The notes: generated by a model from the sequence alone, not told the origin. 64,000 nt of DNA from an uncultured Rhodospirillaceae bacterium (GCA_964390005.1 CAYMGM010000001.1:129839-193838), one strand, 5' to 3'; positions 29,370 through 57,466 are shown, counted from the stretch's first letter. Numbers and translations: made by a program.

Positions 29370-29446
29370 CGGAGAGTAGCTCAGCCTGGTAGAGCACTGC
29401 TTTCGGGAGGCAGGGGCCGGAGGTTCGAATCCTCTCTCTCCGACCA
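29370..29446 (+). tRNA. tRNA-Pro (anticodon CGG)
   Basis: Cloverleaf folded by hand. Acceptor CGGAGAG/CTCTCCG, D-arm GCTC-AGCCTGGTA-GAGC, anticodon stem CTGCT/GGCAG with loop TTCGGGA (anticodon CGG), a T-arm with GGTTCGAATCC, discriminator A, and an encoded CCA. Confidence 0.85.
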
Positions 29447-31868: not shown

Positions 31869-32663
31869 TTGCAGCAAAATCCTGTGCATAACGGGCCCCC
31901 GGGCCTCATCGCTCATTCTTTTGACGGCGTGCCTTTGGGGCAATCGCCGTTTCTGATCGTTTGGGGGCATGGCTGGGGACATAATCGGTCTGTCTTTGCG
32001 CCGTTCGCCGCTTCTTTGTCGCGGCAGGCTTCGCATCTGTTGATCGATTTTCCCGGCTTTGGCGCGTCGCCCATGCCGCCGGAGGTTTGGGATACCGCCG
32101 CTTATGCCGATGCTGTGGCCTCTTTGCTCGCGCCGCTGCGCGAACAGGTGCCATTTATCGTGTGGGTGGGGCATTCCTTTGGCTGCCGCGTCGGCATTCA
32201 ACTGGCGGCGCGTCATCCCAAGCTGGTTGATGCGATGGCTTTGATGGCCGGGGCGGGGTTGCCGCGCCATCGCTCGCTTGCGCAGCGTCTTCGTATCAAA
32301 GGCCGCATTCTGTTCTTTAAACTTTGTAAGAAATTGGCCCCGCTGGTCGGGATCAGCGTCGAGGATTTGCGCAACAAATTTGGCAGCGCCGATTATCGTC
32401 AAGCTGGCGCGATGCGCCCGATTTTTTTGAAAACGATCAGCGAAGATCTAACGCCGCAGGCGCGTCAAGTCGCGTGCCCGACGCTTTTACTGTACGGCGA
32501 GCAAGACACCGAAACGCCGCCCGAGATTGGGCAACGTTTGGCCACCTTGATAAAGGGCAGTGAGCTGACCCTTTTGCCGGGGCTGGATCACTACACAATT
32601 TTAGATCGCGGGCGGGCTCTCGTTTTGAAACGCCTGACCGCTTTGATGGAGCGCCTGTCATGA
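31869..32663 (+). CDS. alpha/beta-hydrolase fold protein
   Basis: HGWGHN oxyanion region and a GHSFG nucleophile elbow. 264 aa. TTG start, with an alternative GTG at 31884. Its stop overlaps the start of the next gene (ATGA). Confidence 0.7.
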   Translation: MQQNPVHNGPPGLIAHSFDGVPLGQSPFLIVWGHGWGHNRSVFAPFAASLSRQASHLLIDFPGFGASPMPPEVWDTAAYADAVASLLAPLREQVPFIVWVGHSFGCRVGIQLAARHPKLVDAMALMAGAGLPRHRSLAQRLRIKGRILFFKLCKKLAPLVGISVEDLRNKFGSADYRQAGAMRPIFLKTISEDLTPQARQVACPTLLLYGEQDTETPPEIGQRLATLIKGSELTLLPGLDHYTILDRGRALVLKRLTALMERLS

Positions 32664-34437: not shown

Positions 34438-34689
34438 ATGTGTGCTTTGCAACAAGAAAAACTTCGCGCCTGTTTCACAGAAGCCTTAGTTTTGCCCGCC
34501 GAGACGGATTTAGAAACGCTGCGCTATCAATCCATACCGGCGTGGGATTCGATTGGGCACATGCGTTTGATCGCGGCGATCGAAGGCGCGTTTAACATCA
34601 TGCTGACAACGGACCAGATTTTGGATCTCAGTTCGTATGCCAAAGCGTGCGAGATTTTGGGGGCTCATGGTGTCGCTAGCGAGTCCTGA
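34438..34689 (+). CDS. acyl carrier protein
   Basis: 84 aa from MCALQQ. The phosphopantetheine-attachment context is WDSIGHMRLIAAIEGAFNI (DSI/DSL motif with the Ser). Confidence 0.7.
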   Translation: MCALQQEKLRACFTEALVLPAETDLETLRYQSIPAWDSIGHMRLIAAIEGAFNIMLTTDQILDLSSYAKACEILGAHGVASES

Positions 34690-35425
34690 TCCATCTGACG
34701 TGCGTCCCGTCGCCGTCGTCACTGGCGCTTCGCGCGGGATTGGCGCGGCCATCGCGCGGTGCTTGGCGCGTGATGGCTATCGCTTGGCGCTGACCGCACG
34801 CGGACATGACGCGCTCATCGCTTTGCAAAACGATCTGGGAAGCGAAGACGTTTTTGTCATGGCGGGCGATGTTGCCGATACGGCTTTTGTGCAAAGCTTT
34901 TATCAAGCGGTGCAAACCCGCTTTGGCCGGATTGATGTGTTGGTGGCCAATGCCGGACAATTGGCCAATGCGCCGCTTGGCCTGATTGCGCCCGAGATGG
35001 CGGACAAGGCTTTTGATGTCAACGTGCTTGGCGTTCTTTCTCACATGCAGATGGCCGCGCGTTTTATGCGCCGTACGAAACAAGGCGCGATGATTTTGAT
35101 GGGCAGTATTATCGGCACGCAGGGCGGCATTGGCCAGACCGTTTACGCGGCGACCAAAGCCGCTTTGGTTGGCATGGCGCTTTCCGCGGTGAAAGAGCTG
35201 GGGCCGGACGGGATCACCGTCAATGTCATTGCGCCCGGCATGATCGATACCGACATGTTGGCCGATTTGTCTGACGCGAAGATTGCGGCGCGTCTTGAGC
35301 AGGTGGCCCTGCGCCGCGTCGGCCAACCGCAGGAAGTTGCGGATCTCGTCTCTTTTCTGGCGTCTGACAAGGCGCGCTATATCACAGGCCAAGTCATTGG
35401 CATTGACGGAGGAATGGTGATTTAA
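34667..35425 (+). CDS. SDR-family oxidoreductase (3-oxoacyl-ACP reductase-like)
   Basis: TGASRGIG cofactor motif, an NAG motif and YAATKAAL (catalytic YxxxK). About 252 aa. It overlaps the ACP stop. Confidence 0.8.
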   Translation: MVSLASPDPSDVRPVAVVTGASRGIGAAIARCLARDGYRLALTARGHDALIALQNDLGSEDVFVMAGDVADTAFVQSFYQAVQTRFGRIDVLVANAGQLANAPLGLIAPEMADKAFDVNVLGVLSHMQMAARFMRRTKQGAMILMGSIIGTQGGIGQTVYAATKAALVGMALSAVKELGPDGITVNVIAPGMIDTDMLADLSDAKIAARLEQVALRRVGQPQEVADLVSFLASDKARYITGQVIGIDGGMVI

Positions 35426-36835
35426 ATGATCGTTTTCACACTGCCTTTTCTGCCCAATACCGTGTTGCATCGCGCGCTTGTTCCCGACGATACACCTGCC
35501 TTGTTCGATGACAAATCGGTCGCGTGGACGACCTATGGCGAGGTGCGTGAGAAAATCGACGCCATGCAGGTTTGTTTTGCCGCGCTTGAAAAAGATCTGA
35601 TCTTCTGCGTCGCGCCGCGAACGGTCGATGGCGCTGTGGCCTATATGGGGGCAACGGCTTCAGGCCATGCTGTCGCGCTGGTCGATCCTTCTATGACGCA
35701 TTTGCGCGGCGTTGTTGCCGCGTACCGTCCGCGCTGGATCATGGCACCGCTGGATCATGCGTATCAAGGCTATGGCAAGGTCGAAGATTTTCCTTTGACG
35801 GGGATGGCGCTTTGGAAACGCTTTGGCGAAGCGGGCGGCTTTATCCATCCGCGCCTTTATTTGATTTTGCTGACATCGGGATCGACCGGCAGCAGCAAAG
35901 GCGTGCGCCTTTCTTATGCAAATGTGGCCAGCAACACGTCGGCGGTGATCGAAAGCCTGTCGATGGAGGGCGGCGTTTGCGCGGTGGGGCATTTGCCTTT
36001 GTCTTATTCCTTTGGGCTCTCGGTTCTTAACACGGCGATGGCTGTGGGCGGGCGCGTTTTGCTGACAGAAGAGGGGATGATGAGCCCCGCTTTCTGGTCG
36101 CGTGCCCGCGCGCAAGAAGCCAATCTGTTCCCCGGCGTTCCGTATCATTTTGAGATGCTGCTGCGCCTGTCGCTGGAAGGGCTGAAGATTCCGTCGCTGA
36201 AAACCTTTTTGCAGGCTGGCGGTAAAATGCCGGTTCCCATGACGCAAAAAGTTCTTGAGGCGGTCATGGCGCGGCAAGGCGGGCTTTACATCATGTATGG
36301 CCAAACAGAAGCCAGCCCGCGCATTTCATCGTTTCCGCTTCACTTGCATCCAGAAAAAATCGGCTCATCAGGTATCCCCATGTCGGGCGGCCATGTCGAG
36401 ATCGTCGATAACGAGATTATCTATCACGGACCGAACGTGATGATGGGCTATGCGATCACGCGCGAAGATTTGTGCAAAGGCGACGGCATGCATGGGCGCT
36501 TGCCGACGGGCGATCACGGCTCTGTGGATGCTGACGGTTATTTGACCGTTTTGGGCCGCGAAAAACGCATTGCCAAGCTTTACGGTCAGCGCGTGGCGTT
36601 GGACGATCTGGAAAAGTTTGCGGCAGCATTGGCCCCCGTCGTTGCGATTGAGCGCGATCAGCAAATCTTGCTGATTACCACGGCGGCAGAAGAAAGCCTG
36701 CGCGACCGGATCAAAGCCTTGGTGATGAGCGAAACGGGCTTGCCGCCGACATGGCTTGAGGTGCGCTCGGTTGCCGATATTCCGCACCAGCCGAACGGCA
36801 AGGTCGATTACCAGCGCCTCCGAGCCGAAGCGTGA
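35426..36835 (+). CDS. AMP-dependent synthetase/ligase (acyl-CoA or acyl-ACP synthetase-like)
   Basis: AMP-binding motif LTSGSTGSSKGV and a YGQTEA motif. 469 aa. It starts 1 nt after the SDR stop. Confidence 0.8.
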   Translation: MIVFTLPFLPNTVLHRALVPDDTPALFDDKSVAWTTYGEVREKIDAMQVCFAALEKDLIFCVAPRTVDGAVAYMGATASGHAVALVDPSMTHLRGVVAAYRPRWIMAPLDHAYQGYGKVEDFPLTGMALWKRFGEAGGFIHPRLYLILLTSGSTGSSKGVRLSYANVASNTSAVIESLSMEGGVCAVGHLPLSYSFGLSVLNTAMAVGGRVLLTEEGMMSPAFWSRARAQEANLFPGVPYHFEMLLRLSLEGLKIPSLKTFLQAGGKMPVPMTQKVLEAVMARQGGLYIMYGQTEASPRISSFPLHLHPEKIGSSGIPMSGGHVEIVDNEIIYHGPNVMMGYAITREDLCKGDGMHGRLPTGDHGSVDADGYLTVLGREKRIAKLYGQRVALDDLEKFAAALAPVVAIERDQQILLITTAAEESLRDRIKALVMSETGLPPTWLEVRSVADIPHQPNGKVDYQRLRAEA

Positions 36836-37929
36836 GCCAGCAAGAGGGAACAGCGCTCGACGCTTTGTTCGCGCTTCCCTATGCCAGCCTTGCCCAAGCG
36901 GAAAAAGAGCGGCAACTGTTTCCGCTGCTGCGCGATGGGCTTGCCTATCACCGCGCGGCTTGCCCTGCTTTTGATCGGATTGTCGCGCGCGCTTTTCCGG
37001 ACGAGCCTGTGGGGCTCGATACCTTGCCCTATCTTCCGATCTCGCTGTTCAAGGACCGGCGTTTGCTTAGCGTGCCCGCGACGGAGGTGCGCGTGGCGGT
37101 TCAGTCCAGCGGCACCAGCGCCAGCGGGCTTAGTCAGGTTGCTTTAACGGCGGATGATGCGCGGCGTACCGCGCGGTCGCTCGCCTCGATCTTAAAGACG
37201 GTTTTAGGGCCTGTGCGCTTGCCCATGCTGTTCATCGACACGCCAGATGTTCTGAAAGGTGGGGGCGCTGTCGGGGCGCGTGCGGCGGCGATTTTGGGTT
37301 TAATGCCTTATGGCCGCGATCACCGTTTTGTCCTGAACGAAGCTTGGGAATTGGATGAAAATGCGCTGCTTGATTTTCTTGCCAAGAACGGGAGTAAGCC
37401 TTTTGTGATTTATGGTTTTACTTTTCTTGTTTGGCAGGCGCTGGCGCCTTTTTGCGCATCGCACCGCGTGGATCTTTCGAACGCGCTTTTGCTGCATAGC
37501 GGCGGGTGGAAAAAACTGCAAAGCCTTGCCGTTGATAATGCCGCTTTTCGCCATGCTTTTGCCGCGCAGGCTGGGCTGACACACATTGTCAATTTTTACG
37601 GCATGGCTGAAATGCCGGGTGTTGTTTTTCTGGAAAACGCAGACGGTCTTTTTTATCCGCCAAGCTTTGCCGACGTTTTGATCCGCGATCCGGTGACGCT
37701 TGCGCCGCTGCCTGTGGGGCAAGCGGGGCTGGTGCAGTGGATCAATCCACTGCCGCGCAGCTATCCCGGCCTTTCCGTTTTGACCGAAGACCTTGGCATT
37801 GTTGAAACCATCGATAGCAATGTCAGTGGTTGGAAAGGCCAAGCGCTTCGTCTGATCGGGCGCGCCCCAAAGGCTGAAATGCGCGGCTGCAGCGATGTGT
37901 TGGCGCAAAAAATAAGCGGGGAGGTCTGA
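36832..37929 (+). CDS. LuxE-family acyl-protein synthetase
   Basis: VQSSGTSASG, LHSGGWKKL and VLTEDLG correspond to the FTSSGTNG, ITGGGWK and IVTDDVG motifs of Vibrio LuxE. 365 aa. 4-bp overlap with the upstream gene. Confidence 0.7.
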   Translation: MSQQEGTALDALFALPYASLAQAEKERQLFPLLRDGLAYHRAACPAFDRIVARAFPDEPVGLDTLPYLPISLFKDRRLLSVPATEVRVAVQSSGTSASGLSQVALTADDARRTARSLASILKTVLGPVRLPMLFIDTPDVLKGGGAVGARAAAILGLMPYGRDHRFVLNEAWELDENALLDFLAKNGSKPFVIYGFTFLVWQALAPFCASHRVDLSNALLLHSGGWKKLQSLAVDNAAFRHAFAAQAGLTHIVNFYGMAEMPGVVFLENADGLFYPPSFADVLIRDPVTLAPLPVGQAGLVQWINPLPRSYPGLSVLTEDLGIVETIDSNVSGWKGQALRLIGRAPKAEMRGCSDVLAQKISGEV

Positions 37930-39128
37930 TGATCCAGTTTCATTTTGCCGCCACGCCACTAAAGGATTTAGAAGATCTTCGTAACGCCTGCCTTGCCGCG
38001 AAAGCGCAGCCTTTGGCTTTTGCCGACCCTAGCGTGCAGGCCTTTGCCCGCGCTTTGTCGGCGGGGTTGCTACAGGATCCTTTGGCCAAAGCTTTTCCGG
38101 CTTGCACGGCCTTTGGGTTTTGGCTGCGGGCCGCTGCGCTGGATGATTTAACGGCGCGTGTGCAAGCGGGATCGGTTGGACGCGCGCCTGCCGGGGCTGT
38201 CTTTTTAATGCCCCCTTCCAACGTGACAACGCTTTTTGCTTACACGGCGCTTTTATCACTTTTATGCGGCAATGTGACGCTGGTTCGCCTGCCGCAGACG
38301 CCCAGCGCGGCGCAAGATTATCTGCTGAGCCATTTTCTACGGGCGCTGGACCAAGCCCCGGATGCATTACGGCAGAAGCTGTTTCTTTTAGGTTATGGTC
38401 ACGATGACGCGATCACCACGGCCTTATCGGCGCTTGCAGACAGGCGTTTTGTCTGGGGGGCTGATGAAACAATTGCGCATATCGGCTCGTTGCCTTTGCC
38501 AGCGGGGGCGCATCATATCGGTTTTGGCGATCGCTTTTCCGCTGCGACCATCGGCGCAGAGGGTTATTTGGCTTTAGACGATCAGGCCAAAGATCATCTG
38601 GCGCGTCTGATGGCCGCCGATATTTACAGCTTTGATCAATTGGCTTGTTCGTCGCCGCGTGCGCTGTTTTGGATTGGCAGCGCCGATACGGTGCAAAAAG
38701 CGCGCGCCGATTATTACCCGCGTCTGACCGCAGCGGCTGAAGCGCGCGGCTATGCGCTTGACGCGGCTCAAGCCATTGCGCGCCGCCGCGCGGCTTTTCT
38801 GGCGCTTCATGATCTTCAAACGCAGTTCTATTGGGGGGCGTCAAAGGCGTTGGCCGTGATCGGCTTGGCGACAGCTGAAGAATTAGAGCCTTTTAAAACA
38901 GTATCTTATGGTTTTGGCCTTTTGCTTGATGCCTGTTGCCCCTCGCTTGAGGCTGTTCTATCAATAGCCAGCGCGCGCGATCAAACGCTAAGCTATGCTT
39001 GCCTGCCTGCGGTGCCGACCGAGCAAACAGCGTATGATCGAATGGTCCCGGTTGGCCGCGCGCTAGATTTTGACGTGAGATGGGACCGCATAGATTTGAT
39101 CGAGGCGATGACACGCCAGCAAGGATGA
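37929..39128 (+). CDS. LuxC-family acyl-CoA reductase-like protein
   Basis: 399 aa. It is the immediate partner of the LuxE-like gene, with a Cys-containing DQLACSSP motif in the position expected for a LuxC catalytic Cys. The family call rests partly on context. Confidence 0.5.
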   Translation: MIQFHFAATPLKDLEDLRNACLAAKAQPLAFADPSVQAFARALSAGLLQDPLAKAFPACTAFGFWLRAAALDDLTARVQAGSVGRAPAGAVFLMPPSNVTTLFAYTALLSLLCGNVTLVRLPQTPSAAQDYLLSHFLRALDQAPDALRQKLFLLGYGHDDAITTALSALADRRFVWGADETIAHIGSLPLPAGAHHIGFGDRFSAATIGAEGYLALDDQAKDHLARLMAADIYSFDQLACSSPRALFWIGSADTVQKARADYYPRLTAAAEARGYALDAAQAIARRRAAFLALHDLQTQFYWGASKALAVIGLATAEELEPFKTVSYGFGLLLDACCPSLEAVLSIASARDQTLSYACLPAVPTEQTAYDRMVPVGRALDFDVRWDRIDLIEAMTRQQG

Positions 39129-39134
39129 AGCAAG

Positions 39135-39776
39135 ATGTCAAAACTAATCATTGTAGGCGCGGGGGGCTTTGGCCTTGAGGTCGCCGCCTATGCCGAGGAC
39201 GCGCGCGCGGCACAAGCCGCGCAGCCCGAAATCATCGGCTTCTGCGATGACACAAAACCCAAAGGTGCGCAGCATGCGGGCTATCCCGTCATCGCGAACA
39301 CGGATGATCCCATTGATCCCACCGCGCTTTATATCTTGGCGGTTGGCTTTCCGGCTGCGCGGCGCGCGTTGGCTGAAAAACTGGCGGCTAAAGGGGCCCA
39401 GTTTCATACGCTGATCCACCCGCAAAGCTATGTCGCGCGGACGGCACGCCTTGCGCCGGGATGTATAGTTGTTCCGTTCGCGACGGTGGGGCCGATGGCC
39501 GTTTTGGGTCCGCACACAATGCTGAATTACCATGCGGTCTTTGGCCACGAAGCGCAGGCTGGTGATTTTTGCGTTTTATGCCCGTATGCCTGCGTCCACG
39601 GCACGGCTGTTTTAGAAGACGATGTCTTTATTGGCAGCGGCGGTTATGTCACGCGCGGCTTGCGTATTGGGCAAGGCTCGAAAATTGCCGCAAACGCTGT
39701 CGTTTATAATGATATCCCGCCGGGCGCGTTGGCGCTTGGCAATCCCGCCGTTTGCAGGAAGGAGCCGAACGCATGA
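39135..39776 (+). CDS. NeuD/PglD-family hexapeptide-repeat N-acyltransferase
   Basis: An N-terminal Rossmann-like IIVGAGGFGLEV is followed by left-handed beta-helix hexapeptide repeats (VFIGSGGYV, IGQGSKIAANAVV). 213 aa. Confidence 0.75.
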   Translation: MSKLIIVGAGGFGLEVAAYAEDARAAQAAQPEIIGFCDDTKPKGAQHAGYPVIANTDDPIDPTALYILAVGFPAARRALAEKLAAKGAQFHTLIHPQSYVARTARLAPGCIVVPFATVGPMAVLGPHTMLNYHAVFGHEAQAGDFCVLCPYACVHGTAVLEDDVFIGSGGYVTRGLRIGQGSKIAANAVVYNDIPPGALALGNPAVCRKEPNA

Positions 39777-40411
39777 AATATTCTTTTTCCATTTTGGCGG
39801 CTTTGGTTTTTCTGACGTCTCCGGCGTTCGCTCAGGGCACGACGGCAGCCGATCCTGAGGCGCGCCTGGCCGCTTGTCTGCAACGCGCCGAAGCCTTGCC
39901 CGATCAAACGAAGGTTGAAGCCGATGCATGGCTTAAGAAAGGCGGCGGCGATCGCGCGCAATTGTGCCGGGCTTATGCGCAGCTGCATCGCGGCGATTAT
40001 GTCTCGGCGGCGCAGGGGTTTTTGTTCCTTGCGCAAAAGCGCCCAAAAACAGACCATGTGCAGCGCGCGAAATTGCTTGAACAAGCAGGGCTTGCCTATA
40101 TGCAGGCGCATGAAGCTGGCCATGCCGAAAGTTCCTTTGCGGCGGCTTTGAAAGAAACGCCAGGGCAGGGGGATCTGCTTTACGACCGCGCCAACGCGCG
40201 CGCCGCTGGCGACAAGCTGTGGGAAGCTTTGGACGATCTGAAACTTGTTTTGAAGAAAGAACCCGAAAGGGTCGATGCCTTGCGCCTTTCGGGACATACT
40301 TGGATCAAGCTGGGGTACGAAAGCAAAGGCAAAGCCGATTTGCTGTTGGCCGAGCAATTGGCAACGGGCGGCGATCCGCGCGACAAAAAACAGGATAAGT
40401 CCGCGCCATGA
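39773..40411 (+). CDS. periplasmic TPR-like repeat protein
   Basis: Signal peptide MKYSFSILAALVFLTSPAFAQG, then helical TPR-like repeats. Its start ATGA overlaps the acyltransferase stop. The ORF track starts at 39752. Confidence 0.5.
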   Translation: MKYSFSILAALVFLTSPAFAQGTTAADPEARLAACLQRAEALPDQTKVEADAWLKKGGGDRAQLCRAYAQLHRGDYVSAAQGFLFLAQKRPKTDHVQRAKLLEQAGLAYMQAHEAGHAESSFAAALKETPGQGDLLYDRANARAAGDKLWEALDDLKLVLKKEPERVDALRLSGHTWIKLGYESKGKADLLLAEQLATGGDPRDKKQDKSAP

Positions 40412-41247
40412 TCGTGACGCGCTTTGCGCCAAGCCCGACGGGATATCTGCATCTCGGGCACGCTTATTCGGCTTGTCTGGCCTATGACTTGGCGCAGGAA
40501 AAGGGCGGGCGTTTTATCTTAAGGATTGAAGATATCGACCCCACGCGCTGCAAAGACATCTACGTCCAAGCGTTGCTTGAGGATTTAGCCTGGCTCGGCC
40601 TTGCTTGGGAGACGCCCGTTCGCCGCCAATCCGAACACCTGGCCGATTACGGCGCGGCGCTTGATCGTTTACAGGCGATGGGGCTTTTGTATCCGTGTTT
40701 TTGCACGCGCCAAGATATTCGCGCCGAGGTCGCGGCGGCTTTATCCGCGCCCCAAGGCCCCGATGGCCCTGTTTATCCCGGCGCTTGCAAGCCTTTGTCT
40801 CCCGATGAGGTTGCTGCGCGGCAGCAAGCCGGTATCCCTTTTTCGTGGCGGCTTGATATGGCGCGCGCCTGCCGGATGGCCCCCAGCCTGTCGTGGCAGG
40901 AAGAAAACCAAGGCCCGATTGCGGCGCGCCCCGAAGCTTTTGGCGATATTGTTTTGGCGCGTAAAGAATGCCCCACCAGCTATCACCTAAGCGTGACGGT
41001 TGACGATGCGCTTCAAGGCGTGACCGATATTGTCCGTGGCCAAGATTTGTTCGCGGCCACGGCCATCCATCGTTTGTTGCAGGTTTTGTTGGATCTTCCC
41101 GCGCCGCGCTATCATCATCACCGACTTTTATGCGGGCCCGACGGCAAACGCCTTGCCAAACGCGATCACGCCAAAGCCTTGCGCACATTACGCGCCGAAG
41201 GCCTGACACCCAGCGATGTTCGGCAGCTTTTCGTTACGGCAAAATAA
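40408..41247 (+). CDS. gluQ: glutamyl-Q tRNA(Asp) synthetase (truncated GluRS paralog)
   Basis: HLGH motif in TRFAPSPTGYLHLGHAYSA, an RIEDID motif and a KLAKRD (KMSKS-like) motif. 279 aa, with no anticodon-binding domain. Confidence 0.85.
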   Translation: MIVTRFAPSPTGYLHLGHAYSACLAYDLAQEKGGRFILRIEDIDPTRCKDIYVQALLEDLAWLGLAWETPVRRQSEHLADYGAALDRLQAMGLLYPCFCTRQDIRAEVAAALSAPQGPDGPVYPGACKPLSPDEVAARQQAGIPFSWRLDMARACRMAPSLSWQEENQGPIAARPEAFGDIVLARKECPTSYHLSVTVDDALQGVTDIVRGQDLFAATAIHRLLQVLLDLPAPRYHHHRLLCGPDGKRLAKRDHAKALRTLRAEGLTPSDVRQLFVTAK

Positions 41248-45930: not shown

Positions 45931-46178
45931 GAGACCCCTCCCTAGCTTTGTTACAGTTACCTATTATCCACCATTTCTCTTACGAAATGAATAAGAGAAC
46001 ATAAGTCATGCCTAGCCATTTGTAAAATAATGATATTTTTCAATATCAAAACACACATTTGTTGGTAAAAGCTGCGTGAATCAGGTTTAAAGCCCATGAT
46101 TCCTTGCGAAAAAAGGCGTTTTGTGCCAAAAAGTTGCTTGAAAAGGCTCCAGCAAAAAACAAAGAAAAAGGGAATTTC

Positions 46179-47285
46179 ATGAAAGTCGCCGTCGTTCACG
46201 AATGGCTGACCACAAAAGCGGGATCAGAATCTGTCATTGAACAAATACTGACCTTGTATCCGGAAGCCGATTTGTTTGTTTTAGTTGATTTTTTGCCCGA
46301 AGCGGATCGCGCTTTTCTGGCTGGCCACAGGATCAAAACATCTTTCATCCAGAACTTACCTTTTGCGCACAAAAAATACCGTTCTTATTTGCCGCTGATG
46401 CCGCTGGCGGTTGAGCAGTTTGATTTGTCGGGCTACGACCTTGTTATCAGCTCGTCGCATGCGGTGGCCAAAGGGGTGCTGACAGGCCCCGATCAAGTTC
46501 ATATTTCCTATGTTCACAGTCCCATTCGCTATGCGTGGGATCTTCAACACATCTATTTGCGCGAGTCAGGGCTTACCAAAGGCCTGCGCGGTATCTTGGC
46601 TAAATTGATTTTACATTATATGCGCCTGTGGGATTGCCGTACCGCTTGTGGCGTCGATCAGTTTGTCGCGAACTCAAACTACATCGCGCGGCGGATTAAA
46701 AAGGTCTATGGCAGGTCGGCGCAAGTTGTTTATCCGCCGGTCCATTTAGATAAGTATATTGCTGGCACGCAGCCGCGCGAAGATTTTTATTTGGCGGTGT
46801 CGCGCTTTGTGCCTTACAAAAAGATGTCGTTGATCGTCGAAGCTTTCACGCGCTTGCCTGATCGGCGCTTGATCGTCATCGGCGACGGCCCAGATTTGAA
46901 AAGCGCAAAAGAGCAAGCGAGCGCAAACGTGACCTTTCTTGGCTACCAAGCGCAAGATGTTGTGATCGATCACATGCAACGCGCCAAAGCCTTTGTCTTT
47001 GCGGCCGAAGAAGATTTTGGCATCGCCCCGGTCGAGGCGCAAGGCTGCGGCACGCCCGTGATAGCCTTTGGCCGCGGCGGCGCAACCGAAACGGTCGTTG
47101 ATGGTCAAACAGGCGTGTTGTTTCCCGAGCAAACGCCTGAATCCCTGATCGAGGCGATTAAAAAGTTTGAGGTCCTCGCGCCGCAACTCAAGGCGACAAC
47201 CATCCGTGAAAATGCCGAGCGTTTCAGCGTCGCACGTTTCAAGGAAGGCATTCAAAAGATCGTCGACGAAGCGATGAAAGCGTAA
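46179..47285 (+). CDS. glycosyltransferase family 4
   Basis: GT-B fold. The C-terminal EDFGIAPVEAQGCGTPVIA motif (E-x7-E). The start is placed at MKVAVVHEWL, whereas the ORF track gives 46104. Confidence 0.8.
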   Translation: MKVAVVHEWLTTKAGSESVIEQILTLYPEADLFVLVDFLPEADRAFLAGHRIKTSFIQNLPFAHKKYRSYLPLMPLAVEQFDLSGYDLVISSSHAVAKGVLTGPDQVHISYVHSPIRYAWDLQHIYLRESGLTKGLRGILAKLILHYMRLWDCRTACGVDQFVANSNYIARRIKKVYGRSAQVVYPPVHLDKYIAGTQPREDFYLAVSRFVPYKKMSLIVEAFTRLPDRRLIVIGDGPDLKSAKEQASANVTFLGYQAQDVVIDHMQRAKAFVFAAEEDFGIAPVEAQGCGTPVIAFGRGGATETVVDGQTGVLFPEQTPESLIEAIKKFEVLAPQLKATTIRENAERFSVARFKEGIQKIVDEAMKA

Positions 47286-47294
47286 CGGCCCCTT

Positions 47295-48380
47295 ATGCGT
47301 CTTCCCCTTTACATCAATGCGCGTTTTCTTGGCAAACCGATCACGGGCACGCAGCGTTTTGCGCATGAGATTATAGCTGCCCTCGATAAAAAAATAGGTG
47401 AGGGCGCACAAGTTTTCTCGAAGGTCGTGTTACTGGCGCCTTCTGGGACGCCGCAGCCGACGGGGCTTGAGCCTATTGGCTTTCAAACATGCGGCCATCT
47501 ACAAGGCCATTTGTGGGAGCAATGGGATTTGTGGCGTGCCAGCCATGACGGCCTGCTGCTCAGCCTGACGAATAGCGGCCCCGTGTGCCACCCGCGGCAT
47601 TTGGTCGTCATTCATGATGCGTTGGTTTACCGGTTGCCCGAAAACTACGCTTGGGCCTATCGCTTGTTTCACCAGAATCTTGGGCGTCTTTTGGCGCGTC
47701 GCGCGCGCGTTGGCACGGTCTCGGCCTTTTCGGCCTCTGAACTAGCCGCCGTCTTTCACGGCCAATCATCGGACTACCCCGTTTTTTACGATGGCTTCGA
47801 TCACATTCTGCGCCTGACGGAAGAGCCCGCCATCCTTGATCGCCTGAACCTGCGCGGTAAACGCTTTTTCCTTTTTGTCGGCTCGCACGTTCCCAACAAA
47901 AACCTAGCCCGCGCGATCCAAGCGTTTATGGCGCTGAAAGACGACACGCTTTCATTTGTGATTGTCGGCTCAACACAATCAAAGGTTTTTGCCGCGACGC
48001 AACTTCAACTACCACCGACGGTCTTGATGCCGGGGCGCTTGACGGATGGCGAGATCGTCGCGCTTTATCGTCATGCTTATGCGCTGGTTTTTCCAAGCTT
48101 GTACGAAGGTTTTGGTATTCCGCCGTTGGAAGCGTTGACGTTGGGCTGCCCCGTGATTGCCTCGCGCATCGCGCCGGTCCAAGAAGTGTGCGGCGAGGCT
48201 GCCAAATATTTTGATCCGTTAGATACCGCGGATATGGCGGCGCAACTGCGCGCGAGTCTTAATGATCCCGCCTGGCGCACAGCCTGTGTGGCAAAGGGTA
48301 AGCAGCGCTTGCCAAACTTCACATGGCGCGCAAGCGCCGAGAAAATATGGCAAGAATTGCTATTCATGAAGAAGGATTGA
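47295..48380 (+). CDS. glycosyltransferase family 4
   Basis: EGFGIPPLEALTLGCPVIAS, the GT4 E-x7-E motif. 361 aa. Confidence 0.8.
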   Translation: MRLPLYINARFLGKPITGTQRFAHEIIAALDKKIGEGAQVFSKVVLLAPSGTPQPTGLEPIGFQTCGHLQGHLWEQWDLWRASHDGLLLSLTNSGPVCHPRHLVVIHDALVYRLPENYAWAYRLFHQNLGRLLARRARVGTVSAFSASELAAVFHGQSSDYPVFYDGFDHILRLTEEPAILDRLNLRGKRFFLFVGSHVPNKNLARAIQAFMALKDDTLSFVIVGSTQSKVFAATQLQLPPTVLMPGRLTDGEIVALYRHAYALVFPSLYEGFGIPPLEALTLGCPVIASRIAPVQEVCGEAAKYFDPLDTADMAAQLRASLNDPAWRTACVAKGKQRLPNFTWRASAEKIWQELLFMKKD

Positions 48381-48385
48381 TGGTG

Positions 48386-49435
48386 ATGAAAAAAGAATTC
48401 ACTGGTGCCCGGTATGGTTTTATTGATGCCATTCGCGGGATAGCGGCCTTGCTCGTGATGCTACAACACTCGCTTTATTCCAGTGGCTTGCTTGGTGACA
48501 TCCATGGCCCTTTAACAGGCTTTATTCCAACGATGCTTGAGTTGGGCGAGACGGGGGTCGTTGCCTTTTTTCTTGTCTCAGGGTTTGTTATTCCGCTCAG
48601 TTTAGAAAAAACGGCAAACTTTAAAATGTTCTGGATACACCGTATTTTGCGTATTTATCCGCTGTATCTGTGCGTCTATTTTGTCAGTTTGGTTTTGCAC
48701 CTTGGAACTTTTGATATCTCAGGCTTTTCAGCGCACGTCGTCAATTTTCTATCGCATCTATTAATGATCCAGGAATATGTCAAACAACCTAATCTTGTCG
48801 GCGGGTCGTGGACGCTTTCGATTGAAATGATCTGGTATATCGGTCTTTCAGTTTTATTCTTGTTGGCCTTGAATAAAAAGCCGCGTTTGCTTGTCGCTTT
48901 AGCCGTTGCCGCTTCATTTTTGGCATGTGTCGTTTGCGCGTTTGGGCCTCACCTTCCTATGGGAAGACTTTCAATGCTGGTTTGTTGTGTGTTGGGTTTC
49001 GTTTGTTACCGTTATGGGAAAAGCGATTTATCCAGCCGCGAATTTTGCTTTTTGGCAGGGCTTTTAATCATTGCGATTGTTACAAACCTGATGACTGGAT
49101 TTTTGTTGTTTCCATCGGCATATCCCACAGCCAGTTTTGCAATGGTTCGAGGTTCTTGGTCTTTAGGTATTTTGATTTTTTTTATACCTTTTCTCTTCCG
49201 TCAATCGTCCATCTGGGACAACAGCCTTTTGTCTTTCCTTGGGAAAATAAGTTATTCGATCTATTTGGGGCACGGTGTTGTCTTGCACCTGCTTGAAGAT
49301 AGCCCGCTAACAGGGTGGTGGTTTATTGCCGCTGTTTTTGTATCGACAATTCTTGTTGCGAGTCTGTCCTACCGCTATATTGAGCAACCGCCCATTCAAT
49401 TCGGTAAAAAACTGAACTCTTTAAGGCAACTCTAG
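48386..49435 (+). CDS. acyltransferase family 3 membrane O-acyltransferase
   Basis: About 10 TM helices. The N-terminal FIDAIRGIAALLVMLQH motif is typical of acyltransferase-3 (OatA/OafA-like). Lower GC than the flanking genes. Confidence 0.75.
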   Translation: MKKEFTGARYGFIDAIRGIAALLVMLQHSLYSSGLLGDIHGPLTGFIPTMLELGETGVVAFFLVSGFVIPLSLEKTANFKMFWIHRILRIYPLYLCVYFVSLVLHLGTFDISGFSAHVVNFLSHLLMIQEYVKQPNLVGGSWTLSIEMIWYIGLSVLFLLALNKKPRLLVALAVAASFLACVVCAFGPHLPMGRLSMLVCCVLGFVCYRYGKSDLSSREFCFLAGLLIIAIVTNLMTGFLLFPSAYPTASFAMVRGSWSLGILIFFIPFLFRQSSIWDNSLLSFLGKISYSIYLGHGVVLHLLEDSPLTGWWFIAAVFVSTILVASLSYRYIEQPPIQFGKKLNSLRQL

Positions 49436-49556
49436 GTAAAATCGGAGTCTATGACGTCGGCAGGGCGCGGCCATAGCCAAGCGCGGTTACGTGGCGTTCG
49501 CTTTATAAATAAGGAACGATGACGGATATTTTTCTTCGATCGTTTTTTCTATATCT

Positions 49557-50492
49557 CTAACTTTCAAAGGAAGCTTTTTCTAAGATTTTGCTTGGGTGGC
49601 CTTTACCGCAAAGCTTGTCGCCTATGGCCATAAAATTTCCGCGTAAGCGCCCCCAATAATCGATATCGGGCCGCGGCGGACGAATGGATTTGATAATATT
49701 GGCCGCAAAGTTTCGTGCAATTTGCCGCAAAGCGGCTTTGGTGGGCATTGTCCCTTTTCCCATCAAATAAAGAGGATTGGCAACTTGGGAATACCCGAAC
49801 CGAAGGCCACTTGTTCGTCCCCCTGAGACCCCCATGTGAACGCCGCGGCAGTTTGGCGTTCGTACGACAGGGCCAAAGGCCAAGGCTTGGCCGGTATAGT
49901 CATAGTCTTCTTGCCAGCTATAAAGCGGAAGGTTTTCATCAAAACGACATTGCCGGATAACGGTATGGTTAAAAGCCATGTTGCAGCCATAGGCACAATC
50001 GACAAAAGATTCTTTTGTTGTATTGGCCCAGTGCTTTTCAGGAACGATGGTCCCGGCCAGATAGTTTGTCGCTTGTTCTTCGCTAAGGCCGCCAGTCATG
50101 ACGCCGTCAGCTAAGACACGTCCTGTCAGGCCGACGATATCGCCTTTGGCAAAACGATCAGCAGCCTTTTCGAGCCAGTCGTCGGCAGGGCGAAAATCGT
50201 CGTCAAAAAAAGCGCAAAAGAAGTCGCCTTTTGTCTCATCCAGAAAGCCGCGTTGACGTAAGGTCTGAATCCCATAATTGCGCTGGCATGTCAGACCGGC
50301 AACAGGAGAAAGAACGATGTTTCCAGCAAGATGCTTAAAAGCGGGATGGTCGCGGCATTCGAAGACATCCCTTTCTTCGCTGCCAACGACAACGACGCCA
50401 TGCGGAGCAAGTGTCTGGCGTTGTAGGTAATCCAGCAGGGTGCCCGTCTCTTTGGCACGTCCTTTGGTCGCGATAATAACGAAAGCGCGCAT
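49557..50492 (-). CDS. glycosyltransferase (GT-A fold, family 2-like)
   Basis: 311 aa. The N-terminus MRAFVIIATKGRAKE resembles GT-A, and FFDDDF is a DxD-like motif. Confidence 0.55.
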   Translation of the reverse strand: MRAFVIIATKGRAKETGTLLDYLQRQTLAPHGVVVVGSEERDVFECRDHPAFKHLAGNIVLSPVAGLTCQRNYGIQTLRQRGFLDETKGDFFCAFFDDDFRPADDWLEKAADRFAKGDIVGLTGRVLADGVMTGGLSEEQATNYLAGTIVPEKHWANTTKESFVDCAYGCNMAFNHTVIRQCRFDENLPLYSWQEDYDYTGQALAFGPVVRTPNCRGVHMGVSGGRTSGLRFGYSQVANPLYLMGKGTMPTKAALRQIARNFAANIIKSIRPPRPDIDYWGRLRGNFMAIGDKLCGKGHPSKILEKASFES

Positions 50493-50636
50493 AGTGCCGT
50501 CTCGATCTTTTGTTTCAGTATTTCTTATGTTATGAACAGGATCATCCGAGATGGCAAGTTCTCACTTTTCGAATGAAGATAAAAAGCGTGTCTTCAAAGA
50601 TTTTGGTTAATATTTTGTCCTTCGCTTAGACAAAAA

Positions 50637-52175
50637 TTGTGGATAATACAGATGCAACCCGAAATAAAACCTAAATTATCGCATCAAGTCGCGAAGGCAG
50701 GCAGCCTGACAGTCTTGGGGAAATTGTTGGGACGCGGGCTCGATTTTATCACGTTGATCGTCTTATCTCACATATTAACGCCCAGCGATTTTGGCTTAAC
50801 GGCCCTTGCGATGACGTCAGTGACAATTGCTGAAAGCGTGACATCGTTACCGTTGACGGCGGTTTTAGTTCGAGAAGAGGCGCCAACCAAGGCCATGTTT
50901 GATACGGCCTTTACCTTGGCTTTTCTCCGCGGGTGCGTTCTGGCTGCTTTTCTAAGCGGCATTGCTTTTGTCATGGCACAGATTTATGGCGAGCCTCGCT
51001 TGACGCCCTTGGTCTGCGCCTTGTCGTTCGCGCCGATTTTTCGAGGCCTTCAAAGTCCGCATATGGTGCGCTTTGTAAAGGACATGGATTTTAGACGTGA
51101 TGCCTCGCTAGAGATTGTGGGGAAAGCGGGGGCTTTGATCGTTGCATCGACGCTTGCCTTGTCAACACGTAGCTATTGGTCGATTGCGATGGCGACAATA
51201 ACGACGCCATTTATTATGAATGTTCTTTCATATTTTTATGCGCCCTATAAACCCGCCTTTAGCCTAGCCGAATGGCCGCTTTTTCGCGCGATCGTCGGGT
51301 GGAACAGTTTGACGCAGCTTATTCTCTCATTAACCTGGCAATCTGATAGGTTGTTGCTTGGCTACTTTATCCCGAAGGCTAATCTTGGTCGCTATACAAT
51401 GGCCAACGATTTGTCCAGCATAGGGATTCAGGCTCTTGTCGTTCCATTGGATCAGCCGCTTCTCGTGGCTTTTTCCAAACGTTTTGATGATGCAAAAGAA
51501 ACGCTTGCCGCAACATATTTAAAAAGCACAAATGCAGTCCTGACAATAGCCGGCCCCTTTTTTCTTGGTCTTTCTCTATTAGCACAACCCATTGTACGTC
51601 TTGTGCTCGGCGAAGCGTGGAGCGAAACCGGACGGTGGTTGCACTGGATCGCACTTTTGAACCTTTCGTTGCTTCCTTTTTATCATATGAACAGCTTGGC
51701 TCTCGCCGTTGATCAGGCCCGTATGACAACAAGGCGTACCTTTGGCGAATTTCTTGTTCAAATACCAGTTGTCTTATGGGGAAGTAGATATTTGGGTGTC
51801 ACGGGGGCTCTGATCGGGCGCAGCATAACGCGCGCCGTTTCTATTCTTATCAGCCTTATAACAGTGCGTGAATTGATTGACGTTTCGATAAAAGGTCAAC
51901 TGATGGCCATGCATCGAACCATGATTGCTTTGTTGACGATGAGCGGCGTTCTTCTTTTAACGCGTGATTTTGTAGCGACGTCGTCAACAGTCATGATGGT
52001 TTTGTCGCTTGGCGTCGTTGCGGTTATCTCGGGCCTCTCATATTATTTGTGCCTTTACGCTTTATGGTTGGCAGAGGGGCGACCAGACGGTTGTGAGAAA
52101 ATTGCGGTTTCGCGGTTGTTAAGTCTTGTCTCTTATCTTTCGAGCAAATGTCTTAAAAAGCGCAAATTATTATAA
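50637..52175 (+). CDS. polysaccharide biosynthesis flippase (Wzx/MOP superfamily)
   Basis: 512 aa and about 12-14 TM helices. The N-terminus (KAGSLTVLGKLLGRGLDFITLIVLSHIL) is typical of the MOP exporter family. Confidence 0.75.
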   Translation: MWIIQMQPEIKPKLSHQVAKAGSLTVLGKLLGRGLDFITLIVLSHILTPSDFGLTALAMTSVTIAESVTSLPLTAVLVREEAPTKAMFDTAFTLAFLRGCVLAAFLSGIAFVMAQIYGEPRLTPLVCALSFAPIFRGLQSPHMVRFVKDMDFRRDASLEIVGKAGALIVASTLALSTRSYWSIAMATITTPFIMNVLSYFYAPYKPAFSLAEWPLFRAIVGWNSLTQLILSLTWQSDRLLLGYFIPKANLGRYTMANDLSSIGIQALVVPLDQPLLVAFSKRFDDAKETLAATYLKSTNAVLTIAGPFFLGLSLLAQPIVRLVLGEAWSETGRWLHWIALLNLSLLPFYHMNSLALAVDQARMTTRRTFGEFLVQIPVVLWGSRYLGVTGALIGRSITRAVSILISLITVRELIDVSIKGQLMAMHRTMIALLTMSGVLLLTRDFVATSSTVMMVLSLGVVAVISGLSYYLCLYALWLAEGRPDGCEKIAVSRLLSLVSYLSSKCLKKRKLL

Positions 52176-53098
52176 CCCCACATCAGGATCAGTCGACCGG
52201 TGATCGCTGGCGACGAAGAAAAAGACCCTTTTAAAATATGAACTATAGCTTGTAGAGATTGTCGAAGATCAAATCTTTTCAAAGCCTGATTGCGCCGAAA
52301 AACGCGCAGTAAAATGTAGCCTTCTTTGGTCGCCGGAGATAGGCGAAGCTGACGAAGCTTGTTCTCAAGCAAGTACTTGTTCACCTCGATAATTTCCGAT
52401 GAAACGGCGCTGCGTTCTTGCTCTTCTGTGCGCGTCATTGAAATGTTTGCCCCGTGCAGACGATATTTCAGAACAGGAACATTGATGTCGTGGATAAGGC
52501 CGTAGCGACTGATGCGAATGTACATGTCATAATCTTCGGCATGAGGATAGGCTGATGAATACCCTCCCGCTTTTTTCAAAGCATCGGTGCGCAGCATGAC
52601 AAGGGGGTGAAGAGCAGTTTTGATAATCGGCGGAAACACAGTCAAATCTGTCTGTTCATGCTGTTGTCGCGGACTTTTAAAGTCGGCCTTTGAGGCAGGT
52701 TGGGTTTGTCCGTTTGCGTCAATCGTGATCGGCTTTCCGCCGACAAGAACGACATCGGGGTGTTCTTTTAGATAAGAAACTTGGACGGCGAACCTGTCTG
52801 GCAGTGAAATATCGTCAGCATCCATGCGAGCCGTAAAGGTTCCGCGTGCGATGGCCAAGCCAGCATTTAGCGCTGCGACGATACCGGCGTTTTCCTGTGA
52901 TAAAACGCGAATGCGTTTGTCCCGCTTTTGATAGTCATCGATAATTTTATCTGAACCGTCCGTACTTCCATCGTTAACAATAATGAGTTCAAAATCATCA
53001 AGCGATTGATCAAGAATAGATTGAATGCTTTCGGCTAAATAGGCCTGACCATTATAAACAGGAAGCAAGCATGAGACAGTGATCGTGGGCGATGTCAT
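52133..53098 (-). CDS. glycosyltransferase family 2
   Basis: VSCLLPVYNGQAYLAESIQSILDQS...LIIVNDGSTDGS...RMDADDIS are the classic GT2 motifs. The start is placed at MTSPTITVS, whereas the ORF track gives 53263. Confidence 0.8.
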   Translation of the reverse strand: MTSPTITVSCLLPVYNGQAYLAESIQSILDQSLDDFELIIVNDGSTDGSDKIIDDYQKRDKRIRVLSQENAGIVAALNAGLAIARGTFTARMDADDISLPDRFAVQVSYLKEHPDVVLVGGKPITIDANGQTQPASKADFKSPRQQHEQTDLTVFPPIIKTALHPLVMLRTDALKKAGGYSSAYPHAEDYDMYIRISRYGLIHDINVPVLKYRLHGANISMTRTEEQERSAVSSEIIEVNKYLLENKLRQLRLSPATKEGYILLRVFRRNQALKRFDLRQSLQAIVHILKGSFSSSPAITGRLILMWGYNNLRFLRHLLER

Positions 53099-53241
53099 GA
53101 CAAAGATCGTTAATGTTTTTGCTCTCTTGGAGGGCGAAGATAACAAATAATATATTGCACTTAGCCATTGAATAGGCAATCTTGTTTTGTGGATTTGAAG
53201 GGATTTTATATTCCTTCTTTTTATTGTAAGGGAGTAAGCAG

Positions 53242-54186
53242 ATGAATATGCAGGATTTGTCAATGCAATTGGACCATTGCACAGATCTATTAGAAGGGCC
53301 TGTCGTTTATCTTGATTATCCCGTTCATAATAATATTGGCGATATCCTCATTTGGCTTGGGGCGCAGAAACTATTAAAAAGAAATCATATACAAGTGCTG
53401 GGCTCTTTTGAGCTGCGCTTAGGTTTCTATGCGAAACATTTATTGTCGTCTTGTACGACGATATGTATGCATGGGGGAGGGAATCTTGGTGATCTCTATC
53501 CGCGGCACCAGTCTTTTCGTGAAAAGATCATTCAAAAATATCCGGATAAAAAAATTGTCATTTTTCCTCAGACTGCCTGTTTTAGTAGTGCAGAGGCTCT
53601 ACAGAAAACAGCCGACATCTTTTTAGCGCACAAAAATCTCCATATTTTTCTAAGAGATCAAAACTCGTTTCAAACGTTGCAAGAGAAGGGAATTCCGAAC
53701 CTCCATCTTTCTCCTGATACAGCCCATGCTCTTTGGCCAATACGCCTTGGCGCGTTTTATCAAAAGGACAGCAAGCTCTATTTTTTCAGGCGCGACAAGG
53801 AAAAGACGCAAACGCCTTTTGATTGCGATGAGAAAGATGCATTCGATTGGAAAGACTGTATTCGTGGGTTCGACGAAGCTTTATTTAATTTTGGTCTTCA
53901 GTATCATCGTGTCGATGCGCGTTTGGCGGGCAGTCTTTTGAAGTCGAGTTGCCTATGGAATTATGTCTCGCAACGTCTTCTCGCCTCTGCTGCCGGGGTT
54001 TATGCAAACCACGAAACCGTCATTACAAACCGCCTGCATGGGATGATTTTTGCGGCGCTCACCGGAACAAAATGCATAGCCTTTGATAATTCGTACGGTA
54101 AGCTGTCTAGCTATTACGACCTTTGGCTTAAAGACATAGATAACCTTAGCTTTATCCAATCAGGTGGGGTTCAACCGCGTCTTTGA
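53242..54186 (+). CDS. polysaccharide pyruvyl transferase family protein
   Basis: NIGDILIW, GGGNLGD and NRLHGMIFAALTGTKCIAFDNSYGK match the CsaB/WcaK pyruvyl-transferase family. 314 aa. Low GC. Confidence 0.7.
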   Translation: MNMQDLSMQLDHCTDLLEGPVVYLDYPVHNNIGDILIWLGAQKLLKRNHIQVLGSFELRLGFYAKHLLSSCTTICMHGGGNLGDLYPRHQSFREKIIQKYPDKKIVIFPQTACFSSAEALQKTADIFLAHKNLHIFLRDQNSFQTLQEKGIPNLHLSPDTAHALWPIRLGAFYQKDSKLYFFRRDKEKTQTPFDCDEKDAFDWKDCIRGFDEALFNFGLQYHRVDARLAGSLLKSSCLWNYVSQRLLASAAGVYANHETVITNRLHGMIFAALTGTKCIAFDNSYGKLSSYYDLWLKDIDNLSFIQSGGVQPRL

Positions 54187-55624: not shown

Positions 55625-55644
55625 GCGTTCTTGATTTCTAGAGA

Positions 55645-55920
55645 TCAAGCAAAAACCCCGACGACGGACATTCCTACCTCTGGCGAAACAATAGCTATCG
55701 TCGTGGGGAGGTCGTTTGAAAAATCACTGTCGCTGCGAATGCAAGTGTAATAAAGACTTGGATCGCCAGCTCCTGGCAACAGGCTTTCGTTGCCGTTTTC
55801 GTCCGTTATGGTTTGTTCGGCGCGACCCTTTTGGATCGGGATATAATTTTTAAAACTTGCCACGAAGTTTTCTAAAAGAGCTTCATTATCACAAGATAAA
55901 TATGTGTCGATATAAGCCAT
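55645..55920 (-). CDS. hypothetical protein (AT-rich, phage-like triplet member)
   Basis: 91 aa. It is the last of three tightly packed minus-strand ORFs with GC clearly below the surrounding genes. Confidence 0.3.
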   Translation of the reverse strand: MAYIDTYLSCDNEALLENFVASFKNYIPIQKGRAEQTITDENGNESLLPGAGDPSLYYTCIRSDSDFSNDLPTTIAIVSPEVGMSVVGVFA

Positions 55921-55927
55921 CTTTCAC

Positions 55928-57260: not shown

Positions 57261-57466
57261 TTGAAATCCTTTCCAAGCATAAAAAAAGCGGCCCCTGAAA
57301 AGGGCCGCGTGCCGCGAGATATTTTTGTTTTTGTTCCTGTAAGTGTTCCGAATGCGCGTCAAAGCAAAAAAGGCGCAAGGAACCTGTCTTTAGTCAATAC
57401 GCGAAAGCGCGGATCTCGTCAAGGGAAAAATCCTACATTTAGACGAATGTTCAGAAAAATTCTACT

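Follow-up and report, generated by a model that had tools for sequence, protein, structure and literature searches.

A cluster of six genes was analysed in a 64,000-nucleotide stretch of DNA from an uncultured Rhodospirillaceae bacterium (GCA_964390005.1 CAYMGM010000001.1:129839-193838), the whole of which is called the window below. The genes code for an acyl carrier protein (ACP), a FabG-type short-chain dehydrogenase/reductase (SDR), an AMP-binding (ANL) ligase, a LuxE-family protein, a LuxC-family protein, and an N-acyltransferase of the NeuD/PglB/VioB family. Our results suggest, with a probability of roughly 55%, that these six genes constitute an ACP-dependent pathway in which a short hydroxylated acyl group is produced and then placed on an amino sugar of a surface glycan. 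The proposed target is lipopolysaccharide, exopolysaccharide, or a protein-linked glycan. Taken alone, the carrier-protein-dependent N-acylation of a glycan amino sugar is probable, and the specific route through a dicarboxylate is a tentative proposal that falls somewhat short of an even chance. The five genes from ACP to luxC, referred to here as the cassette, are a further member of a widespread and already described kind, and they are neither a lux remnant nor a fatty-aldehyde factory.

The six genes form a real, well-formed operon. They belong to a series of seven open reading frames (ORFs) that succeed one another on the plus strand from 34438 to 40411, all of which overlap or lie no more than 6 nt apart (Table 1). 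The junctions (end/start 35425/35426, 36835/36832, 37929/37929, and 39128/39135) thus fit a single operon. The start of the SDR gene overlaps the stop of the ACP gene, as it also does in the metagenomic locus L086, and an alternative SDR start lies at 34637. The seventh ORF codes for a secreted TPR-like protein with the signal peptide MKYSFSILAALVFLTSPAFA. Its translation is coupled to that of the transferase gene by an ATGA overlap at 39773, and gluQ-RS is coupled to it by another at 40408 (stretch 39773-41247). No homologue of the TPR-like protein was found beside the cassette in 74 other loci, and its membership in the acylation system is doubtful. A scan for promoters and terminators gave no signal above chance, and an Rfam search detected no element in the 176-nt leader before the ACP gene, its only hits being two tRNAs elsewhere. 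The cluster lies between housekeeping genes, namely tpiA and tRNA-Pro on the upstream side and gluQ-RS and sdhCDAB on the downstream side.

Table 1. Features of the window discussed in the text, with positions counted from its first nucleotide.
Feature	Position	Strand	Remarks
ACP, small, 83 aa	34438-34689	+	motif WDSIGHM; PF00550 20.2 bits
FabG-type SDR	34667-35425	+	adh_short_C2 E 1.3e-56; TIGR01830 E 2.6e-64
AMP-binding (ANL) ligase, stand-alone	35426-36835	+	PF00501 E 1.8e-33
LuxE-family protein	36832-37929	+	PF04443 E 4.5e-44
LuxC-family protein	37929-39128	+	PF05893 E 4.2e-24
NeuD/PglB/VioB-family N-acyltransferase	39135-39776	+	TIGR03570 166.8 bits; PglD_N and Hexapep
Secreted TPR-like protein	39773-40411	+	weak TPR-type NCBIfam matches; agrees with the existing gene call
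Ddl-like gene, about 408 aa	30525-31751	-	insertion of about 40 aa; divergent from the hydrolase/MurF-like pair
Alpha/beta hydrolase	31869-32663		generic Abhydrolase families
MurF-like ligase, 533 aa	32660-34261		4-nt overlap with the hydrolase gene (translationally coupled)
Polysaccharide locus	46104-60041		GC 0.44-0.49 versus about 0.55
tRNA-Gln	60391-60465	-	end of the polysaccharide locus
tRNA-Pro(CGG)	29370-29446		just upstream of the region
Secreted protein, 208 aa	29840-30466		no Pfam match
SAICAR synthetase paralogue	10759-11763	+
SAICAR synthetase paralogue	13799-14596	-

A preliminary description of this region, made from the sequence alone, had reported LuxE-type motifs followed by a LuxC-like gene without luxAB, in one operon with an ACP, an adenylating ligase, a reductase, and a NeuD-type transferase. 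All of these points were borne out. The Pfam scan covered all ORFs of at least 180 aa that were judged to be genes, except for tpiA, gluQ-RS, and sdhB, which were identified by eye or from precomputed Pfam matches. Among the scanned ORFs and these three, no luciferase gene (luxA, luxB) and no LuxD-type acyltransferase were found in the window.

The profile searches proposed in that description gave strong matches for both Lux-related proteins. The LuxE-family protein scored 151 bits against PF04443 (cut-off 24.9), and the reported motifs were all found in its translation (SSGTSASG, corresponding to SSGTSxSG, as well as SGGWKK and LTEDLG). Its alignment to LuxE in the solved LuxC-LuxE complex from Photobacterium (7XC6_E, E 7.7e-15) covered 345 residues. 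Near the C-terminus of this alignment its RGCSD motif falls on KGCS, the cysteine of which we take to be the acylation site of LuxE. The corresponding Cys353 was invariant in 35 homologues. By this likeness, the LuxE-like enzyme would adenylate a carboxylate and carry it on Cys353.

The LuxC-family protein scored 85.6 bits against PF05893 (cut-off 21). A direct sequence search of the PDB with this protein returned no match, and the link to the solved LuxC was made with a family profile and with a predicted structure. The profile, built from 33 homologues, matched LuxC 7XC6_A (E 1.7e-10) with DQlACsS placed on DQQACFS, and both Cys240 (in DQLACSS) and Asn115 were invariant in these homologues. 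The AlphaFold model had a predicted local distance difference test (pLDDT) score of 95, and its top Foldseek match was also 7XC6_A, followed by aldehyde dehydrogenases. Cys240 would be the LuxC-like catalytic residue, and the enzyme, which has the aldehyde dehydrogenase fold, is proposed to act in the manner of a thioester reductase, making an aldehyde. Neither protein is indicated to be an ortholog of its bioluminescence counterpart, as the NCBIfam equivalog models returned only 62.1 bits for LuxE (NF052244, cut-off 550) and 15.7 bits for LuxC (NF052251, cut-off 750).

The ACP fell slightly below the PF00550 cut-off of 20.8. Its residues W36-D37-S38 and H41 were at least 95% conserved among 120 cassette homologues, and Ser38 of the WDS motif is presumed to be the phosphopantetheine site. 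The ligase carries the A3 (TSGSTG), A5 (YGQTE), A7 (TGD), and A10 (NGK) motifs. Its best solved relatives are the carrier-protein loaders VinN (3WVN, E 3.9e-23) and DltA (3FCC, E 1.9e-18), which load small polar acids onto free-standing carrier proteins. Other relatives act on dicarboxylates, including MenE, the 2-oxoglutaryl-ACP ligase AmcH, and oxalate and malonate ligases. In the SYSFGLS motif of the ligase, which was conserved in 131 homologues, a Ser occupies the place of the Asp found in VinN (SWDFGL) and DltA (FSFDLS). Since this Asp presumably binds the amino group of the substrate, a non-amino acid is the likely substrate here, and the ligase is proposed to load such a carboxylic acid onto the ACP.

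The SDR was close to FabG, yet remained under the TIGR01830 cut-off of 297; its NAG and Y-x3-K motifs were conserved among homologues. Its proposed role is the reduction of an aldehyde or oxo group on a carrier-bound acyl chain, yielding an alcohol. The transferase passed the cut-off of TIGR03570 (NeuD_NnaD, 160.8 bits) and matched PF17836 (E 2.2e-11). The best solved relatives were VioB (7TXP, E 6.5e-19), a Neisseria pilin glycosylation protein (4M98), and perosamine N-acetyltransferase (4EA7). The His of its FGHEA motif was aligned with the His of VioB LSHGV, which we take to be catalytic, and the GH pair was conserved in homologues. This left-handed beta-helix protein is proposed to take the acyl group over from the ACP and attach it to the amine of a sugar.

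An alignment of LuxE-like proteins was scanned against one genome per species and against JGI metagenomes; each of the two scans returned more than 540 relatives, of which the best 80 were fetched. The order ACP-SDR-ligase-LuxE-LuxC on one strand, with the ACP gene first, was found in 83 of the 97 loci with enough flanking sequence, and the window has the same order. Most of the remaining 14 loci were without only the short ACP match or the SDR. The hosts included Acidobacteriota, many Actinomycetota, Bacteroidota, Alphaproteobacteria, Campylobacterota, Myxococcota, and Deinococcota, the last with a Deinococcus plasmid. All relatives in these scans were at most 51% identical, and a plasmid search, which yielded annotated examples of the cassette, gave a best identity of 46%. 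The earlier view of the genes as orphans was therefore not upheld, and the set is not unusual, given this conserved order and the published descriptions of the cassette in flagellin glycosylation islands (PMC7874193, PMC4875605) and of a comparable enzyme set in Vibrio cholerae (PMC3441752, PMC9915646).

The neighbours of the cassette point to glycans. A hexapeptide acyltransferase gene lay immediately 3' of luxC in 11 loci and immediately 5' of the ACP gene in 42. The genes located up to 9 kb from the cassette, as surveyed in 74 loci, included those for DegT sugar aminotransferases (40/74), acyltransferases (38/74), and Gfo/Idh/MocA oxidoreductases (25/74), and more rarely 4,6-dehydratases (8), family 4 glycosyltransferases (GT4; 6), and flagellins (2). 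N-acylation of a glycan is the best-supported function because of the flanking acyltransferase in about 50 related loci and the frequent DegT neighbours. A search for homologous cassettes in polysaccharide loci had been proposed, and several with the same six-gene layout were found in glycan contexts. In Telmatospirillum (locus L010) the set of cassette and NeuD is accompanied by flagellin, DegT, 4,6-dehydratase, and methyltransferase genes; on a Deinococcus plasmid (L171) by glycosyltransferases, EpsG, and a sugar transferase; on a metagenome contig (L121) by a sugar nucleotidyltransferase, a GHMP kinase, and a GT9-like protein; and in Actinoplanes (L013) by DegT. This LuxE/LuxC subfamily normally occurs without luciferase.

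Based on the observed family membership, the conserved catalytic residues, the operon structure, and the conserved order and neighbours of the genes, the following pathway is proposed, for which we infer the substrate, the order of the steps, and the acceptor. The ligase would adenylate a small non-amino acid and thioesterify it to the dedicated ACP; the most likely substrates are dicarboxylic acids, for example malate, malonate, or succinate. The LuxE-like enzyme might then adenylate the carboxylate that remains free and load it onto its own C-terminal cysteine. From there the acyl group would pass to the cysteine of the LuxC-like enzyme, where reduction with NAD(P)H would yield an aldehyde. 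The FabG-type SDR may convert this aldehyde to an alcohol, giving an omega-hydroxyacyl-ACP. Finally, the NeuD/VioB-type transferase would acylate, with this group, the amine of a nucleotide-linked amino sugar supplied by genes elsewhere in the genome. Reduction could also take place on the free acid, before loading. This dicarboxylate model gives a role to all five cassette genes. For V. cholerae O1, Morona and co-workers reportedly envisaged a dicarboxylic precursor that is reduced at its distal carboxyl.

The closest functional parallel is found in V. cholerae O1, where the genes VC0248-VC0252 (rfbK-O, wbeK-O) are assigned to a putative pathway for tetronate (2,4-dihydroxybutanoyl), which N-acylates perosamine (PMC3441752, PMC9915646, PMC9201469, PMC12208996). 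This pathway is a proposal derived from sequence (Morona et al., Gene 166:19, 1995, as cited in PMC12208996). The ligase RfbL is thought to couple the acid either to RfbK, the carrier protein, or to CoA (PMC12208996), whereas VC0250 and VC0252 are an iron alcohol dehydrogenase and an acetyltransferase, respectively (PMC9201469, PMC9915646). Judged by these descriptions, both systems combine a dedicated carrier protein and an adenylating ligase with LuxE-type and LuxC-type activities and a hexapeptide N-acyltransferase, and the product in both would be a short hydroxyacyl amide on an amino sugar, which in the window is a prediction. Each system also has a reductase, but these are of different families, an SDR in the window and the iron alcohol dehydrogenase in V. 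cholerae. The LuxE and LuxC activities reside in two proteins here, whereas RfbN of V. cholerae (2478 nt) carries both annotations and is read as a fusion. In addition, the transferase in the window is of the NeuD/PglD/VioB type, and perosamine or other amino-sugar genes are not linked to it.

A second parallel is provided by the group II polar flagellin glycosylation islands of Aeromonas, in which orf1 (ACP), orf2 (reductase), orf3 (AMP-dependent synthetase), luxE, and luxC have been described as genes of 'fatty acid synthesis' (PMC7874193). The five gene families also occur in several types of flagellin glycosylation islands in enterobacteria (PMC4875605). All five are thus common to the islands and the window, and the Aeromonas order is the order found here. 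However, the islands sit between pse genes or beside flagellin genes, whereas the window is without flagellar or nonulosonic-acid genes, and luxC is followed by a GT2 glycosyltransferase gene (fgi-1) in Aeromonas instead of the NeuD-type transferase gene seen here.

The LuxCDE fatty acid reductase of bacterial bioluminescence (solved complex 7XC6) shares with the window the folds and the acyl-carrying cysteines, at the C-terminus of LuxE and in the active site of LuxC, and the chemistry is probably the same, running from carboxylate through acyl-AMP and thioester to aldehyde. Nevertheless, the LuxC-like protein is only about 14% identical to 7XC6_A in the fold alignment and is about 80 residues shorter. 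In place of LuxD and LuxAB, the partners here are an ACP, a ligase, an SDR, and a sugar N-acyltransferase. That transferase resembles VioB, PglD, and PerB in passing the NeuD/PglB/VioB model, in joining a PglD_N domain to a beta-helix, and in the His aligned to VioB. The characterised enzymes of this group use acetyl-CoA, whereas an acyl-ACP donor, as in LpxA and LpxD, is predicted here; the genetic linkage of the transferase to a private ACP suggests such a donor.

Several observations weigh against the proposed hydroxyacylation of a glycan. Literature searches on the biochemistry of the cassette yielded genomic descriptions only. No DegT/sugar aminotransferase, sugar dehydratase, or nucleotidyltransferase was found among the Pfam-scanned ORFs of the 64-kb window, so the pathway to the acceptor must lie elsewhere in the genome. 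The V. cholerae precedent is itself termed 'putative' and was likened to the window by described functions rather than by sequence, and its alcohol-forming enzyme is an iron alcohol dehydrogenase, as opposed to the SDR here. The usual reaction of FabG-type enzymes, reduction of a ketone at C3, fits malonate semialdehyde as an intermediate but is not evidence for it. Furthermore, the nearest LuxE relatives (55-58% identity) belong to trimmed cassettes; at 100% identity the LuxE-family protein was found in only one NCBI contig and two SRA assemblies, the next relative being 58% identical. One of them (L083, GCA_963852305.1) has ACP-ligase-LuxE-LuxC without the SDR, with DegT and glycosyltransferases nearby, and two on metagenome contigs (L085, L086) have ACP-SDR-ligase-LuxE without LuxC and adjoin an Elm1-type (PF06258) gene. 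The five enzymes therefore need not form one fixed line, and they may be used in different combinations.

Among the alternatives, the one to be taken most seriously, although unlikely, is a route like that of fatty acid synthase, in which acetoacetate or another 3-oxo acid is loaded on the ACP by the ligase and reduced by the SDR to 3-hydroxybutanoyl-ACP for the NeuD/VioB transferase. LuxE and LuxC would then have a side role, for example in making or recycling the acid, and the product would be like the 3-hydroxybutanoyl viosamine of Pseudomonas syringae flagellin. The SDR is indeed nearest to 3-oxoacyl-ACP reductases, 3-hydroxybutanoyl is, to our knowledge, the unusual N-acyl group most often seen on the amino sugars of bacteria, and the Telmatospirillum locus is of the viosamine type, with 4,6-dehydratase, DegT, VioB-type transferase, methyltransferase, and adjacent flagellin. 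However, this route leaves no job for LuxE and LuxC, the two most conserved genes, which are kept with the others in the 83 loci mentioned above, and the P. syringae system reportedly uses a FabH-like synthase, which is absent here. Far less probable is a true fatty acid reductase, as suggested in the papers on the flagellin islands, in which long-chain fatty acids would be converted to fatty aldehydes or alcohols destined for a 'liposugar', a wax, or another lipid. The family membership of LuxE and LuxC with retention of the acyl-carrying cysteines agrees with it, and fatty acid synthesis was also the reading of the authors who described the islands (PMC7874193, PMC4875605). Against it stand the very low equivalog scores, the absence of LuxD, luciferase, and any chain-elongating enzyme (ketosynthase, dehydratase, or enoyl reductase), a ligase that resembles loaders of small polar acids and not FadD, and the amino-sugar and N-acyltransferase genes of the neighbourhoods. 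The earlier proposal that the genes deliver either a (hydroxy)acyl or an aldehyde group is thus best supported in its first part, and a free fatty aldehyde is an unlikely end product.

The sugar amine is likewise the better supported of the two acceptors named in the preliminary description, in view of the acyltransferase and DegT neighbours, and acylation of a peptide seems very improbable. In that alternative, the cassette would act together with the Ddl-like, alpha/beta hydrolase, and MurF-like genes located upstream, and the transferase would N-acylate a D-amino-acid peptide or a cell-wall precursor. The two gene groups do adjoin in the window, which has no genes for a sugar amine, and in a Rhodospirillaceae metagenome-assembled genome (L004) the six-gene layout of cassette and NeuD stands directly upstream of mraZ-mraW-ftsL-ftsI. 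However, the Ddl-like/hydrolase/MurF-like trio, often with a VanX-type M15 peptidase, was present without the cassette in all three other alphaproteobacterial genomes that were looked up (L088, L089 from Dichotomicrobium, and L090), and homologues of the trio were found within 9 kb of the cassette in none of 74 loci. The two groups are separated by 176 nt, and the nearest solved relatives of the transferase all use nucleotide sugars. A functional link between the cassette and this module is therefore unlikely, and the separation of the two in other genomes indicates that they are neighbours by chance or through a lineage-specific event. A related and equally improbable idea is that the cassette has been recruited away from sugars and hydroxyacylates a D-amino-acid peptide or an envelope precursor, giving a new lipopeptide-like compound. 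It would draw on the loss of the amino-sugar partners, the adjacent Ddl-like/hydrolase/MurF-like module, and the co-transcribed periplasmic TPR protein.

The hydrolase had previously been regarded as the opening gene of the operon, with a LuxD-like role in acyl transfer. Neither part of this proposal was sustained. Its gene is coupled to the MurF-like gene, and this pair ends before the 176-nt gap. The LuxD-like role was rejected, as the hydrolase had no match to the LuxD family, has no homologue near the cassette in the 74 loci, and travels with the Ddl-like and MurF-like genes. The first 160 or so residues of the MurF-like ligase, which stand in place of the MurF N-terminal domain, are mostly hydrophobic and are probably membrane helices. 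The module has more than 4000 homologues at E<1e-10, and we know of no described function for it.

Genomes with the cassette number in the hundreds and represent at least seven phyla, and the genes are routinely labelled 'fatty acid synthesis' or even 'bioluminescence'. If the dicarboxylate-to-hydroxyacyl model is true, it would be a source of tetronate-like N-acyl decorations on O antigens and flagellin glycans. Such decorations affect phage receptors and antigenicity; in V. cholerae O1, mutation of wbeL, wbeM, or wbeN leads to loss of the O antigen or of sensitivity to phage (PMC3441752, PMC9915646). The window itself adds one more example, without acceptor genes. In Aeromonas piscicola AH-3, which carries the cassette, the flagellin glycan contains a derivative of pseudaminic acid with a mass of 376.14 Da as well as an 'unknown 102 Da moiety' (PMC7874193). 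According to our calculation, a dihydroxybutanoyl group (C4H6O3) has a mass of 102.03 Da, and replacement of one acetyl of Pse5Ac7Ac by this group gives 316.13 - 42.01 + 102.03 = 376.15 Da. This agreement suggests that the cassette makes the 102-Da group of the A. piscicola flagellin.

The Deinococcus plasmid locus mentioned above (Deinococcus sp. NW-56, NZ_CP026517.1, 8877-10133) is a case in point for annotation, since RefSeq assigns the Gene Ontology term 'bioluminescence' to the LuxC-like gene of what is an exopolysaccharide locus. The LuxC-like subfamily is systematically mis-annotated, and this locus is an example.

Some further features of the window were observed outside the cluster. 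A polysaccharide locus lies 6 kb beyond the cassette region and codes for five glycosyltransferases (three of GT4, two of GT2) along with a Wzx-type flippase, a pyruvyl transferase, an O-acyltransferase of the Acyl_transf_3 family, and a weak Wzy-like protein; no amino-sugar genes were found in it. With its lower GC content and its end at tRNA-Gln, it is probably a horizontally acquired exopolysaccharide or O-antigen island. On the other side, between tRNA-Pro(CGG) and the Ddl-like gene, the 208-aa secreted protein has the C-terminus VLPLFAVGVLGLGAAKKRRKA, which resembles a PEP-CTERM-type sorting tail. In addition, the window contains two SAICAR synthetase paralogues less than 4 kb apart, between which a polysaccharide deacetylase/DUF3473 gene and a YceI-like gene are located.

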